From Eledone cirrhosa (Eukaryota): 48,312 nucleotides of DNA. Below the pieces are notes generated by a model. That model made no database searches and was not told where the DNA came from. It saw only the letters and a list, made by a program, of their open reading frames with translations. The translations under genes and the position numbers were made by a program. The stretch is from contig CAXHJY010001384.1 in the NCBI GenBank assembly GCA_964016885.1, forward strand, positions 1-48,312. The letters run 5' to 3'. This document shows, one piece after another, positions 33,736 through 45,250 of this stretch (positions are counted from its first letter, which is position 1; each line of letters starts with the position of its first letter).

Positions 33736-33771
<36 letters not shown>

Positions 33772-33774
<3 letters not shown>

Positions 33775-33978
33775 AAGGTTAAACGAGGTTCAATGAATAA
33801 ATCAAAGAATGAGATTTACAATAGATTGGAAGCACTCAACTGTTTTGGTTTTCCGGAGTTTTTAATATTAATTAAAAATATTAACAAAAATAGACATCCG
33901 TGTGATCAAGTATATTTTATTATACATATTTCAGAGGTACTGAGCTATCTTCAACAGTACCTCCTCATCAGATAAAAT
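33772..33978 (-). mobile_element. Penelope-like 3' end from a sister family
   Basis: Starts at (TA)n, contains AAGCACTCAACTGTTT (compare AAGCACTCTACAGTTT at 35634) and a hammerhead of the same design as the large element. Confidence 0.7.
33914..33978 (-). ncRNA. Type I minimal hammerhead ribozyme
   Basis: Minus strand reads ATTTTAT-CTGATGA-G-GAGGTACTG-ttgaagatagct-CAGTACCTC-T-GAAA-TATGTA-TA-ATAAAAT: 7-bp stem I, 9-bp stem II, near-palindromic stem III. Confidence 0.8.
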
Positions 33979-34049
33979 GAGATGATGCATGACATGATGG
34001 CGTAGGACAGAACAAAGGAGAGGCACAAAAACAAAGGAAAGAATCCCCA

Positions 34050-34092
34050 GTCACTGAAGAGATCACAGAATGTGTGACGAAAGAACGTTGAC
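34050..34092 (+). ncRNA. Decayed hammerhead core
   Basis: GTCA-CTGAAGA-GATCACAgaatgTGTGAC-GAAA-GAACGT-TGAC: stems I and II are present, but the cleavage triplet register is broken. Confidence 0.45.
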
Positions 34093-34290
34093 AATATATG
34101 AACAATGGTCTGGTTGTGGAACCAACCAACCAACCGGAAATTTATAAATTTAATTTATAATAAATTGAAGTGAAAGCAACTGGTGCGTGTGTTTCTTATT
34201 GGCAACATGAATCTCTCAAAGTATAACAATATCGGTTTCAACACACGTTTTCAGAGAAAGAATCTTGCTAAACAAATTCAGCAACGAAAC

Positions 34291-34326
<36 letters not shown>

Positions 34327-34599
34327 CGTATCTATAGGCATGTATTCAGCATATCAATACATTTGGTTATATAATCCAATACAGGTTTACTTCCGTCTAT
34401 TTCTGTGTGAGTGTGTCAGTATGACTCGGATGAATGAACAACGATAAAATATAACTATTAAGTAGTGAATACATAGGACTATATACTCCTGTACGACTGC
34501 GCCATTGCTGAATATATTTGTGTTGGTCTTTCGGTAAGGTTTCCTCCGTCAATGTTACAATGTATATGAGCAAATGTGGTGTTAGCGAGCGTTTGTGCA

Positions 34600-34802
34600 T
34601 GTGTATGTATGTATAGAATGTGTGTGTATATATATATAGTGCGTGTGAGTGTATATATTTTTATATATATATATATATATATGTGTGTATGTGTATATAT
34701 GTGTGTGTGTATGTGTATATATGTGTGTGTGTGTATCTGTGTGTATATATATGTGTGTGTGTATGTGTGAGTGTGTATGTTTATATATATATATATATAT
34801 GT

Positions 34803-34894
<92 letters not shown>

Positions 34895-35463
34895 GTTTAT
34901 ATATATGTTTATATATATGTTTATATATATATATATGTTTATATATATGTTTATATATATGTTTATATATATATATGTTTATATATATGTTTATATATAT
35001 ATATGTTTATATATGTATATATATATTTATGTTTATATGTTTATATATATATGTTTATATATGTTTATATATATATGTTTATATATGTTTATATATATAT
35101 GTTTATATATGTTTATATATATATATGTTTATATATATATATATGTGTTTATATATGTATGTATATATATATATATGTTTATGTATGTATATATATATAT
35201 ATGTTTATATATGTATATATATATGTTTATAAATGTATATATATATGTTTATATATGTATATATATATGTATGTATATATATGTTTATATATGTATATAT
35301 ATATGTATATATATATGTTTATATATGTATGTATATATGTTTATATATGTATATATATATGTTTACATATGTATATATATATATATATGTTTATATATGT
35401 ATATATATATGTTTACATATGTATATATATATATATATGTTTATATATGTATATATATATATG

Positions 35464-35494
<31 letters not shown>

Positions 35495-35505
35495 GTATAT
35501 ATATG

Positions 35506-35570
<65 letters not shown>

Positions 35571-35580
35571 GTATATATAT
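34600..35580. repeat. (TA)n/(TG)n microsatellite
   Basis: TA repeat with GTTT/GT interruptions; left target flank of the Penelope element. Confidence 0.9.
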
Positions 35581-35706
35581 GTAGGAGGTGAGTTTTATTG
35601 TAGTACAATAAAGCAATGCAGATATCGGATAAGAAGCACTCTACAGTTTGTGGGACTGGAGTATGCATAATATAAGATCAAAAGATGGTTAAAGGAGTTC
35701 AATATA

Positions 35707-35773
35707 TTTTATTATGCGCATTTCAAAAACAAACATCATCAAACAATAATATTTGTGTTTTCATCAGATAAAA
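35707..35773 (-). ncRNA. Type I minimal hammerhead ribozyme in the Penelope 3' region (sense to the ORF)
   Basis: Minus strand reads TTTTAT-CTGATGA-[AAAC-ACAAATATTATT-gttt-GATGATGTTTGT-TTTT]-GAAA-TGCGCA-TA-ATAAAA; loopless palindromic stem III. Confidence 0.85.
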
Positions 35774-36714
35774 CAGGAGAACATGATATGAAGGCTAAAA
35801 AAACACTTGTTGATAGTGCGGTTTTAAATCAACATATGAAAAGTGGTTTTAGATTGATGTGTGATATTGGGAAAAATATTTTATTTAGAGAGGGGGGGAG
35901 AGAAAAGGATGAAAAGGGAAGGAGATGAGAGGGAGAGATGGGTGATAGAGAGAAAGAGATAGTTTTTATAACAGAGAGGAGATATATATTATATAGAGGG
36001 GTTGAAAACCGTTGGAAGATACTGTATAAATTAAAAATTTTGAAAATTAACGAAGGGAGGATATGTGCGAGGAAAAAATATATTATATTTAGGGAGGGGT
36101 GGGGGTGGAAAGGATGAAAAAAAGGGGAGGAGATGAGAGTGAAGGTGGAAAGGGAGAGATGGGTGATAGAGAGAAAGAGATAGTTTTTATAACTGAGAAA
36201 AAGATATAATGTTTTAATATAGAGAGGTTGGGAACCGTTGGAAGATAATGTATAAATTAAAGGAATTTGAAAATTAACGAAGGGAAATTATGTATGGAGA
36301 TAGAGAGAAAAAAATAACGAAGGGAGATTATGTATGGAGATAGAGAGAAAAAAATAATAATTGTGGGTGAATATTCAAAAGGAGAAATGTAGGAATCTTA
36401 AAATTAGCAAAGAGAAAATGTTTATGTATAGGATTTGAGAAAAATTTATATTGAATTCATATGTATTAATAATGAGTTTGTTGATGGGGAGAAAAAAATA
36501 ATAATAATGATAAATTAAGGATGAAATTGAGATTAAAAAGATTTATGATAGAGAGAAAAAATAATAATGATTGCGGATGAATACTCAAAATGTCAAAAAC
36601 AAATGTTATTGTTTTACGAAGAGATATAATGAGGGTGATGAGTAAACGGGTATTATAGAGTGTATAATGCCCTTTAAAGTAAGGTAGATGGGTATATTTT
36701 AAAGAATATATGAG

Positions 36715-36759
<45 letters not shown>

Positions 36760-37018
36760 TATAATAATAAATTAAGGATGAAATTGAGATTAAAAAGATT
36801 TATGATAGAGGGAAAAAAATAATAATGATTGCGGATGAATATTCAAAATGTCAAAAACAAATGTTATTGTTTTACGAGAAGATAGGATGAGGTAAATGAA
36901 TAAACGAGTACTATAGAGTGTATAATGCCCTTTAAAGTAAGGTAGATGGGTATATTTTAAAGAGGTGTATGTATATGTGCCTTTGAGAAAAGATTCTAAA
37001 TTGATAAAGAATTGAATA

Positions 37019-38890
37019 TTAACTGTATACTTTGTGAAAAGTTCTATGGAATTTATGAAGGCAGATGGAAAACAAATCCGAGCGTCTATTTATTATGGAT
37101 TCTAGGTTAGAGATAATGGTAAATTTTTCATTTAGGCAGAGATTACAGATTTTAGATAGAGAACTGTTCAAGTACGAGGATGCAGAAGAAATCTTTTTCC
37201 AAAAGATGTTATATTTAATGTTTTTGTCTTTTAAGGACCATATGAGTTCTGAGAGAGCAGTGTTAGTTCTTTTAAGTTTGTATTTGAAAGATGAATGATG
37301 ATTATAGAGACGAGCTTTAAAAGAGGTGGAAGTGGAGCCAAAATAGGTGAAGGAGTTGGTGCTAGTTATAATTTTACATTCATAAATTAAGTTTTTATCG
37401 AGGCAATGGTTGTTGAGAGGACATTTATTTTTAATGCGGCAGTTGCAATTAGAGAGATTATTAATGAGTGATCTAGTGTTATCTATAGAAGGAATTGGAT
37501 TGGAGAAGTTGTTTGCGATAGGAATAATAGGAATAATAGTTTCTTGATTTAGAGTTGGATTATGAACATTTAACGAAGTTGTGTTTGACGTTGTATTTGG
37601 GTTTACAGAAGTTAGCCTAGGGTTTACAATGACGTCAGGAGTACTATTATTGTTATTATGAGATTCAATATTGGAAGGAAGAGATTTAGTATTTAATATT
37701 TTGTTGTTGTGTTTAGAAATGATGTTGGAAATATTGGAGGATGTAGAATACGAAAATTTAATGGTGTGTTTGTTAAATATTTTACTATAGATATGTGAGG
37801 GAGGGAAGCATTTATTTAAGGCACTAAAAAATAATTTAGGAATATTGTTATTAATAGAGATGGAGAAAGGAGCATTATACCAGATTATGTTTTTGTATCT
37901 AGGTCTTTTATTAAAATTATTGGAATGGTTATGATTAAATATTCTACTGTAAGTTTTCCTAGAATTTGTTTCTTTATTATATTTGATTTTATCTGGATAG
38001 CCAGCTTTAGAAAGTGCGTTATTATAGTAATTGGCGTTAGCATCAAAGATGTTTTTATTAGAAGATATGTTAGATATTCTATTTCCAATATTATTAACTA
38101 TAGCATTCTTGATATTGGTAGGATGGTTAGATTTAAAGTTAACATAATTAAGATTCTCATTGTTTTTATGGTAAGGGTAATATAGGCCAGTGTCAAGATT
38201 AAGAGATACATCCAAGAAATTAGCTAGTTTGGTACTATTATCAAATTCAATTTTTAGGTTATGTTGGTTAAAGAGATTACGTATATTGTTCTTAATAATA
38301 TTAAGTTTAACTATATTGCAATTTAGGATAGTAAAGAGTCCATCGTCACGATAAATTCCACCGCGAAGTTGAGGAATTTTCCGACTCAAAGAGTTCAAAA
38401 TGAAGATACCAATTAAATCAGTCAATTGGGATGAATCGGATGCTCCCATTGTGATGTCGAAGTTGTTAGAGGTATCGGCTCTGGTCCAATATTCGTTGTT
38501 GAACTCTAGGATGGTTTTACGTGCGGTGAGGATGATGTGAAGTTCATCTGTGGTGATGTCAGAATATTTAAGTGCGAAAGATAGAGCATTATTGAGAAGT
38601 GAAGGCGAAATGGAGGAATAGTAGCTGGCAATATCGAATTGAATAAATTTTAGTTTGTTTTTATTATCCAATTTGTTGAACCAGCCAATCACTTCAGAAG
38701 TACCAAACCATAAATTTAGGTTTAAAGAAGAGCAATTAGAACTAACCTGTGGGATAATCCTATCCAAGATGGCTTTACTAACAACCCCCAGATCAGATTT
38801 AGAGGGGGCGATTAATCTAACAGGTAGTTCAGTGCGAAAATTAATACATATGAATTCAATACATATGAATTCAATATAAATTTTTCTCAA
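37019..38890 (-). CDS. Penelope-like reverse transcriptase + GIY-YIG endonuclease (N-terminally truncated)
   Basis: Motifs VRLI, FDIASYYSSI, FDITMGASDS, IYRDDGL, NFLDVSL, SNHP, then CNCRIKNKCPL...LIYECKI...YFGST...FKARLYNH...CNLCLNEK. No internal stops. The first ~15 codons come from the inverted arm, so the start is not native. Confidence 0.92.
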   Translation of the reverse strand: MRKIYIEFICIEFICINFRTELPVRLIAPSKSDLGVVSKAILDRIIPQVSSNCSSLNLNLWFGTSEVIGWFNKLDNKNKLKFIQFDIASYYSSISPSLLNNALSFALKYSDITTDELHIILTARKTILEFNNEYWTRADTSNNFDITMGASDSSQLTDLIGIFILNSLSRKIPQLRGGIYRDDGLFTILNCNIVKLNIIKNNIRNLFNQHNLKIEFDNSTKLANFLDVSLNLDTGLYYPYHKNNENLNYVNFKSNHPTNIKNAIVNNIGNRISNISSNKNIFDANANYYNNALSKAGYPDKIKYNKETNSRKTYSRIFNHNHSNNFNKRPRYKNIIWYNAPFSISINNNIPKLFFSALNKCFPPSHIYSKIFNKHTIKFSYSTSSNISNIISKHNNKILNTKSLPSNIESHNNNNSTPDVIVNPRLTSVNPNTTSNTTSLNVHNPTLNQETIIPIIPIANNFSNPIPSIDNTRSLINNLSNCNCRIKNKCPLNNHCLDKNLIYECKIITSTNSFTYFGSTSTSFKARLYNHHSSFKYKLKRTNTALSELIWSLKDKNIKYNIFWKKISSASSYLNSSLSKICNLCLNEKFTIISNLESIINRRSDLFSICLHKFHRTFHKVYS

Positions 38891-39551
38891 ATCCTATACA
38901 TAAACATTTTCTCTTTGCTAATTTTAAGATTCCTACATTTCTCCTTTTGAATATTCACCCACAATTATTATTTTTTTCTCTCTATCTCCATACATAATCT
39001 CCCTTCGTTATTTTTTTCTCTCTATCTCCATACATAATTTCCCTTCGTTAATTTTCAAATTCCTTTAATTTATACATTATCTTCCAACGGTTCCCAACCT
39101 CTCTATATTAAAACATTATATCTTTTTCTCAGTTATAAAAACTATCTCTTTCTCTCTATCACCCATCTCTCCCTTTCCACCTTCACTCTCATCTCCTCCC
39201 CTTTTTTTCATCCTTTCCACCCCCACCCCTCCCTAAATATAATATATTTTTTCCTCGCACATATCCTCCCTTCGTTAATTTTCAAAATTTTTAATTTATA
39301 CAGTATCTTCCAACGGTTTTCAACCCCTCTATATAATATATATCTCCTCTCTGTTATAAAAACTATCTCTTTCTCTCTATCACCCATCTCTCCCTCTCAT
39401 CTCCTTCCCTTTTCATCCTTTTCTCTCCCCCCCTCTCTAAATAAAATATTTTTCCCAATATCACACATCAATCTAAAACCACTTTTCATATGTTGATTTA
39501 AAACCGCACTATCAACAAGTGTTTTTTTAGCCTTCATATCATGTTCTCCTG

Positions 39552-39618
39552 TTTTATCTGATGAAAACACAAATATTATTGTTTGATGATGTTTGTTTTT
39601 GAAATGCGCATAATAAAA
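39552..39618 (+). ncRNA. Second copy of the hammerhead, in the inverted arm
   Basis: TTTTAT(39552)-CTGATGA(39558)...GAAA(39601)TGCGCA-TA-ATAAAA(39618); predicted cleavage after 39612. Confidence 0.85.
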
Positions 39619-39658
39619 TATATTGAACTCCTTTAACCATCTTTTGATCTTATATTAT

Positions 39659-45250
<5,592 letters not shown>

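Follow-up and report, generated by a model that had tools for sequence, protein, structure and literature searches.

Structure of the insertion

The window analysed here is the whole 48,312-nucleotide stretch of Eledone cirrhosa DNA presented above (GenBank assembly GCA_964016885.1, contig CAXHJY010001384.1, positions 1 to 48,312, forward strand), and our subject is an insertion at 35581–39658 that belongs to the Penelope-like elements (PLEs), the closest retroelement relatives of telomerase. The insertion lies between long (TA)n/(TATG)n runs (34550–35580 on the left and 39659–42250 on the right) and comprises two inverted arms, a one-sided tail, and a 5′-truncated open reading frame (ORF) for a reverse transcriptase (RT) with a GIY-YIG endonuclease. 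In our assessment it is a young insertion of a high-copy Hydra-clade PLE into (TA)n, with arms that probably arose by twin priming on one sense RNA.

The left arm (35667–36467, − strand) represents the 3′ untranslated region (UTR) or pseudo-long terminal repeat (pseudo-LTR) part of the sense copy; it matches the right, inverted arm (38858–39658, + strand) at 801/801 positions (100.000% identity, zero gaps), and the two enclose a loop of 2,390 bp. Each arm carries a type I hammerhead motif with predicted stems, at 35706–35774 on the − strand (predicted cut between 35713 and 35712) and at 39551–39619 on the + strand (predicted cut after 39612). An earlier sequence-only reading of the window had described two identical arms of equal length, a loop of about 2.4 kb, an outward-facing hammerhead in each arm, and (TA)n flanks, and the alignment and motif positions bear out all four. 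It overlooked an 86-bp tail (35581–35666, − strand), with two conserved hairpins, that is present at the left end only; at the right end, which has no counterpart of it, the inner site of the arm stands directly on (TA)n. The tail tip is the outer and 35667 the inner of two fixed insertion ends, which are putative RT start sites (A and B, respectively). Also overlooked was the make-up of the inversion junction (38840–38857), where the arm end is followed by a 15-bp tandem duplication of itself (38843–38857) and by a microhomology of 3 nucleotides (nt) common to arm and ORF (38840–38842); other copies match from 38842 or 38840 only. A target-site duplication is unreadable because the target is (TA)n, and an empty allele was not found when sought via the left flank, which is itself a repeat.

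Position 35837 (− strand; mirrored at 39488 on the + strand) corresponds to a family-wide strong-stop position, at which arms often stop with an extra C, and is a candidate capped transcription start. The remaining 3′ UTR (36468–37018, − strand) includes an internal duplication of 215 bp (92%) as well as an expanded homopolymer.

Open reading frame and clade assignment

A stop-free frame of 624 codons runs from 38893 to 37019 on the − strand, so that the uninterrupted RT and GIY-YIG frame of the sequence-only reading stands as regards stops; it has no start codon, however, and its first 17 residues derive from junction sequence, leaving 607 codons of element ORF (37019–38842). In full-length relatives from the same genome the ORF encodes 809 aa (800 aa counted from the second Met). 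The window copy joins this ORF only from 38842, and the missing first 202 codons include the RW and DKT motifs; it is therefore unable to mobilise itself and, for want of a start codon and the N-terminal domain, is predicted to be inactive as a protein source. The portion retained (607/809 aa) covers the RT core with catalytic motif YRDD (38342–38353, − strand; kept in 58/58 proteins of the tree set), the thumb, an N/S/T-rich insert, a CxCx5C linker, and the GIY-YIG endonuclease.

Full-length copies have a single ORF with RT together with a GIY-YIG endonuclease at the C terminus, for which the Pfam match is below cut-off (PF01541 is matched in 3/18 aligned proteins). The Pfam search gave no RT match for the protein, and the best match in the PDB search was a group II intron-type RT at E=0.38 only. 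The motifs SDKT and RLRWT (an RWT variant of RWK) are present in the full-length ORF, both in the part missing from the window copy. The linker CNCRIKNKC conforms to CxCx5C, and CNLC..EK and N.R....CLH to CxxC/CxH around conserved E and N, with no CCHH in the endonuclease as judged by eye. Between motifs A and B there is no insert relative to 17 relatives, among which there are no references with an insertion-in-fingers domain (IFD), a domain that the Hydra clade is described as lacking (PMC8557442). The N/S/T-rich insert (~75 aa, in frame, between thumb and linker at ~37480–37720, − strand) is absent in 16/17 aligned relatives and recalls the N-rich inserts of bdelloid Penelope elements (PMC3846280; published sources are cited throughout for the parts consulted). 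Scoring of 8,000 candidates yielded 70 relatives at 31–40% identity. A quick tree of 58 proteins groups the E. cirrhosa protein with one Argonauta hians protein and one other (SH-aLRT 100), all three being compositionally biased.

On its C-terminal endonuclease, RW, DKT, YRDD, CxCx5C, CxxC, and CxH motifs, as well as the hammerhead motif, the family is assigned to the Hydra clade of PLEs, and by eye the protein matches the Hydra rows of a published alignment (PMC8557442). Members of this clade are described as having a C-terminal endonuclease, RWK, DKT, no GxKF/Y, CxCX5C, CxxC/CxH, no CCHH, hammerheads, and (TA)n targets (PMC8557442). Hydra-1_Obim, Hydra-1_Crog, and Penelope-13_HM share with the E. 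cirrhosa family the single ORF, C-terminal GIY-YIG, DKT, RW motif, CxCx5C, CxxC/CxH, lack of CCHH, 3′ hammerhead, and (TA)n target, and an inverted 5′-truncated copy of Penelope-13_HM is already in print (PMC8557442). The E. cirrhosa family differs from them in its unit of ~3.9 kb (3,895 bp in the tandem L215 described below, thus above the <3 kb that is general in the clade), 1.4-kb 3′ UTR, ~75-aa insert, and RWT instead of RWK (PMC8557442).

The sequence-only reading was thus supported in seeing a PLE with an inverted 5′ arm and TA targeting, but its placement in the Naiad clade fails, as the features that it cited for Naiads are defining for the Hydra clade (PMC8557442). Naiads resemble the family in (TA)n bias, inverted 5′ copies, and very high copy number, whereas their N-terminal endonuclease (joined to RT through a CxC domain), DKA motif, CCHH, and lack of canonical hammerheads do not fit it (PMC8557442); C-terminal endonuclease, DKT, and the hammerhead motif rule this clade out. 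Penelope/Poseidon, Neptune, and Nematis are likewise ruled out, as their DKG and endonuclease CCHH were not found. A non-LTR retrozyme (non-coding tandem repeats with a hammerhead per unit) is excluded by the coding element and by its dispersed palindromic short derivatives; such tandem non-coding units are the subject of a retrozyme preprint (10.64898/2026.07.22.740005).

Family size, age, and source lineage

The last 26 nt of the element occur as 10,770 exact copies in the 3.0-Gb assembly, internal tandem junctions included; numbers of this order (>10,000 3′ ends) are seen for Naiads only in the parts of PMC8557442 consulted. A query with the RT region returned 1,753 candidates, and the 40 that were scored are all 100% identical. 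Inverted-arm hairpins of the window type are common in the E. cirrhosa genome: inverted arms are the norm of the family and not peculiar to this locus. A search for full-length copies, proposed in the sequence-only reading, yielded relatives with an intact ORF at 17/29 best-matching loci, yet at only 2/140 sampled loci.

The closest copies show 1–2 mismatches over 1,824 bp of the ORF region. By this measure the window copy is very young, in agreement with the sequence-only reading, and the family would appear to be currently mobile. Two variants common to both arms were seen in none of the other sampled copies that cover the two sites (58 and 25). One of them occurs in 8 places genome-wide, among them a tandem on C1765 (L215; G000:C1765:68500-78400) that consists of two units identical over 3,809 bp and 46 bp of a third, with both ORFs intact. 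This tandem carries both rare arm variants and differs from the window copy by 3 substitutions and a homopolymer difference; the window copy is likely to stem from its lineage. The identical units of the tandem would fit a multimeric or circular RNA template. Self-copying as the origin of the rare variants shared by the arms was rejected because the variants were found in five other places.

Elsewhere in the window, (TA)n at 3678–3847 (+ strand) holds an older 3′ piece of this family (170 bp, 94.7% identical), with the tail but the second hammerhead half only; at 33770–33979 (− strand) are a tail and hammerhead from a diverged sister family, in which stem II differs and the palindromic stem III is altered. 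Pieces 99% identical to 36990–38900 are present at very low depth in the sequencing runs of three other organisms. Their depth of ~1–40, vs. tens of thousands in organism A, would fit trace DNA as well as true copies acquired by horizontal transfer.

Hammerhead motifs

The motif of each arm comprises CUGAUGA...GAAA, a 7-bp stem I, a 12-bp stem II, a palindromic stem III, and an AUA site; it is without the usual G10.1–C11.1 pair. In the monomer, the minimum-energy fold differs from the active hammerhead (z −1.0; −5.8 vs. −10.6 kcal/mol), and the palindrome of stem III is predicted to pair between molecules in an 8-bp duplex (−12.5 kcal/mol). The motif likely needs a dimer, and PLE hammerheads have been proposed to act as dimers (PMC4209133). 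The Rfam search made no hammerhead call, giving only spurious miRNA and snoRNA matches on TA repeats. Among 26 pre-selected variants 99.5% of cells are paired, with no two-sided change and no excess of covariation over shuffles.

Two fixed ends and a proposed twin-priming model

Regions around the first listed tail ends (80) and inner ends (60) were fetched on C1, and three hand-picked loci were dropped from the latter before counting, leaving 57. For loci picked by the tail end, the second end was resolved by script in 60/80 and is the inner site in 59 and the tail tip in one; for loci picked by the inner end, it was resolved in 42/57 and is the tail tip in 42/42. Genome-wide, 4,952 inner ends adjoin (TA)n directly. 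Diverged sister families have the same two ends, with a tail that includes an invariant ACTC/GAGT stem and a terminal hairpin, and the tail hairpins are kept in 19 sequences from the E. cirrhosa family and its sisters, with two-sided changes in 3/13 pairs. Short palindromic insertions of other hammerhead families (L118:6420-6830, L164:1800-2240, L136, L117, and L219) display the same asymmetry of long and short ends.

In the model that we favour, the GIY-YIG domain would cut both strands of (TA)n, and one DNA end would start complementary DNA (cDNA) at the tail tip and the other 86 nt inward; the ends themselves are observed in the genome. Both cDNAs would copy the same RNA toward its 5′ end, with the RT at the inner site leading and the trailing one displacing it or stalling behind, after which the two cDNAs would join head to head via microhomology or filler bases such as are seen at the junctions. 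Priming in the upstream pseudo-LTR would run off a capped 5′ end after ~170 and 257 nt, giving the common palindromes of ~430 bp, and priming in the downstream repeat would give long copies, the window copy representing 3,262 nt from the tail tip and, from the inner site, 801 nt. Of the RNAs used, probably only a small share is cut by the hammerhead. An internal promoter is known in the Penelope of D. virilis (PMC2377424).

The two arms share a haplotype in 17/19 young insertions, vs. 0.31 expected, and at least four haplotypes coexist among young copies, the arms rarely mixing. If the two DNA ends were extended on separate RNAs of one source locus, with a protein dimer or the palindromic stem III keeping the pair together, this would fit the polarity and the strong stop as well as the haplotype concordance, the last if one locus dominates at a time. 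The intermolecular stem III duplex and the dimeric action proposed for PLE hammerheads agree with such pairing, and the anole Poseidon protein is predicted to be a dimer (PMC11167929). We nevertheless consider two templates unlikely, as they provide no reason for the further 5′ reach of the inner arm, which extends further than the tail arm in 32 short insertions vs. 7 with the reverse (n=69) and in 23 vs. 8 long insertions (n=33; p=0.011), or for tail arms that stop near the inner site; mixed arms are rare despite the four or more haplotypes available.

A second alternative dispenses with the second primer: with a single cDNA, the inverted arm would form where antisense RNA or the cDNA primes itself or folds back at a palindrome, or by later gene conversion. 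Self-priming of this kind has been proposed for bdelloid Penelope elements from palindromic junctions (PMC3846280), and the alternative would account for identical arms and for the 8/27 double-stop junctions that are perfect palindromes. It is difficult to reconcile with arms that do not overlap (9/69 short insertions), inverted arms longer than their supposed template (32/69), varied fillers, and the 2.4-kb loop at the window locus; the rare variants shared by the arms are inherited from the source lineage. The cap-like extra base implies a sense RNA template. The polarity of the ends (59/60 and 42/42), the haplotypes (17/19), and the common stop with its extra C thus favour twin priming on a capped sense RNA over antisense self-priming, to which we attach little probability.

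The common stop bears on a third possibility. Insertions are short (median 424 bp; ≤700 bp in 68/101), and among those of 69 short insertions, 47 inverted and 34 tail arms end in an 8-position interval about the equivalent of 35837: both arms in 27, the inverted arm only in 20, and the tail arm only in 7, with varied fillers. These stops could mark RT pausing at an RNA structure, or the ~430-bp palindromes could be a non-autonomous family copied whole, with no transcription start at this position. The stop has a predicted hairpin just downstream, and a 6-nt palindrome lies on it, and the short lengths agree with such a family. Against this, fillers vary by copy, the arms stop independently, and the palindromes share the haplotypes of long copies. 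The base that follows the strong stop is C in 2,602 vs. T in 796 cases, and C 21, T 8, A 8, and G 15 (G being the templated base) in the fetched loci; pausing does not predict this threefold excess of C, and other stops, taken as a control, show C in only 3/15. An extra G at full-length LINE-1 5′ ends has been attributed to the mRNA cap (PMC11702581). We infer that the equivalent of 35837 is a capped transcription start, and regard the pausing or non-autonomous explanation as improbable.

That the perfect arms are an assembly or polishing artefact, as zero differences over 801 bp on a small, unplaced contig with ~62% tandem repeat might suggest, is very improbable given the asymmetric ends found in 59/60 resolved sister loci, the unique junction with its 15-bp duplication, and the lineage variants carried by both arms and found on other contigs; that no listed contig of four sequencing runs bridges the junction, which might be held in favour of an artefact, is uninformative either way because contigs drop rare variants.

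Several points weigh against twin priming, or against the strength of the counts behind it. Sampling covered the first 102 Mb of C1 and relied on exact-match patterns, and is biased to young copies. The script left the second end unresolved at 20/80 and 15/57 loci, and insertions with the same end twice exist, both tail/tail (L111 and, by eye, L076 and L100) and inner/inner (the hand-picked L198 and L199 and, by eye, L167). At the window locus it is the tail arm that is longer, i.e., the minority pattern. Haplotype concordance would also be expected if two RNAs of one locus were used or if subfamilies had been active one after another, and a nearest other locus resembles an arm as closely as the partner arm does (1.3 vs. 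1.5 mismatches). Tail arms that stop near the inner site amount to a weak excess (8/34, p=0.027, for an interval picked after viewing the data), and 5/21 of the “C” junctions are readable as a templated base. Fold junctions at the predicted ribozyme cut (36) exceed those at a control site (17) by twofold under patterns of differing strictness, but match those at the adjacent 8-nt palindrome (31), and are only suggestive of a cleavage trace. The quick protein tree contained no named PLE references, and every step of the mechanism is read from genomic copies.

A fuller version of twin priming is a reasonable possibility that we put forward tentatively. In it, the thousands of family copies would document the entire PLE insertion pathway. 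Each DNA end would have its own RT, the two starting on a single capped sense RNA at fixed sites 86 nt apart that are marked by conserved hairpins, and retrovirus-like strong-stop cDNAs made from the promoter repeat would be joined into thousands of twin-hammerhead palindromes; a small class starting at the ribozyme cut would be a trace of in vivo cleavage, and tandem units may come from an RT circling ligated RNA.

Relation to known systems

A parallel is the Poseidon element of Anolis carolinensis, the protein of which cuts and extends both strands in vitro, beginning at two RNA-internal sites by which the tail is delimited, at AT-rich targets (PMC11167929); the ribozyme is dispensable in vitro (PMC11167929). 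Poseidon belongs to a different clade, however, and its start sites are adjacent, without strand difference, and inside the ORF start (PMC11167929), whereas the ends of the E. cirrhosa family are separated by 86 nt, are found upstream of the ORF in tandem copies, and occur nearly always as one of each per insertion. Inverted arms are not derived in the parts of the anole study covered (PMC11167929). LINE-1 twin priming likewise uses two primers on one RNA, with a head-to-head join, microhomology, and an extra cap base at full-length 5′ ends (PMC11702581); there the second primer is set by chance microhomology and the arms barely overlap (PMC11702581), whereas in the E. cirrhosa family neither site varies and hundreds of bases are usually duplicated between the arms. 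The 86-nt tail compares with 30–40 bp given for PLEs (PMC8557442).

In the open-access literature we found no paper that has both Penelope or pseudo-LTR structure and twin priming as its theme, and the idea may be in print in subscription papers; an Octopus vulgaris repeat paper makes no mention of Hydra elements in the parts consulted (PMC13282606). Clade, element layout, and inverted arms are already known, and new within that literature are how large the family is for a Hydra element, its structured tail of 86 nt, the polarity by which an insertion has one end of each kind, and the strong stop followed by a cap-like base. The single locus is an ordinary dead copy of a known clade, and what it offers is access to a young family of >10,000 copies. 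The junctions of this family discriminate between models of how PLEs make inverted repeats and tails, a question left open in the parts consulted of two earlier studies (PMC3846280; PMC11167929). If true, two-site priming would explain together the tail, the inverted pseudo-LTR, and the partial tandem seen across PLEs. The family also allows two priming sites, a capped start, and the ribozyme cut to be predicted exactly, and offers intact ORFs for in vitro work; among full-length PLE proteins, the only one that we saw reported in purified form belongs to a different clade. Thousands of the family's short perfect palindromes may be misfiled as DNA transposon miniature inverted-repeat transposable elements.

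Transcription across the arms and other features of the window

Identical inverted arms raise the question of double-stranded RNA. The putative starts at 35837 (− strand) and 39488 (+ strand) point outward, and, if they are real, neither transcript would span both arms. In read-through RNA from outside, the antisense arm would be made first and the ribozyme would likely be trapped in the duplex.

A crude ORF scan of the window revealed no host gene, with only a broken long interspersed nuclear element (LINE) and satellites nearby. The former is a frameshifted LINE-type RT remnant at 15330–17176 (+ strand), identified by eye from its translation. Satellite arrays with periods of ~163 bp and 142 bp occupy ~9900–11540 and 4040–6100, respectively, and 62% of the window is tandem repeat. 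A dispersed repeat of ~345 bp lies at 33992–34336 (+ strand), with 2,200 candidates, the best copies of which are 90–96% identical.

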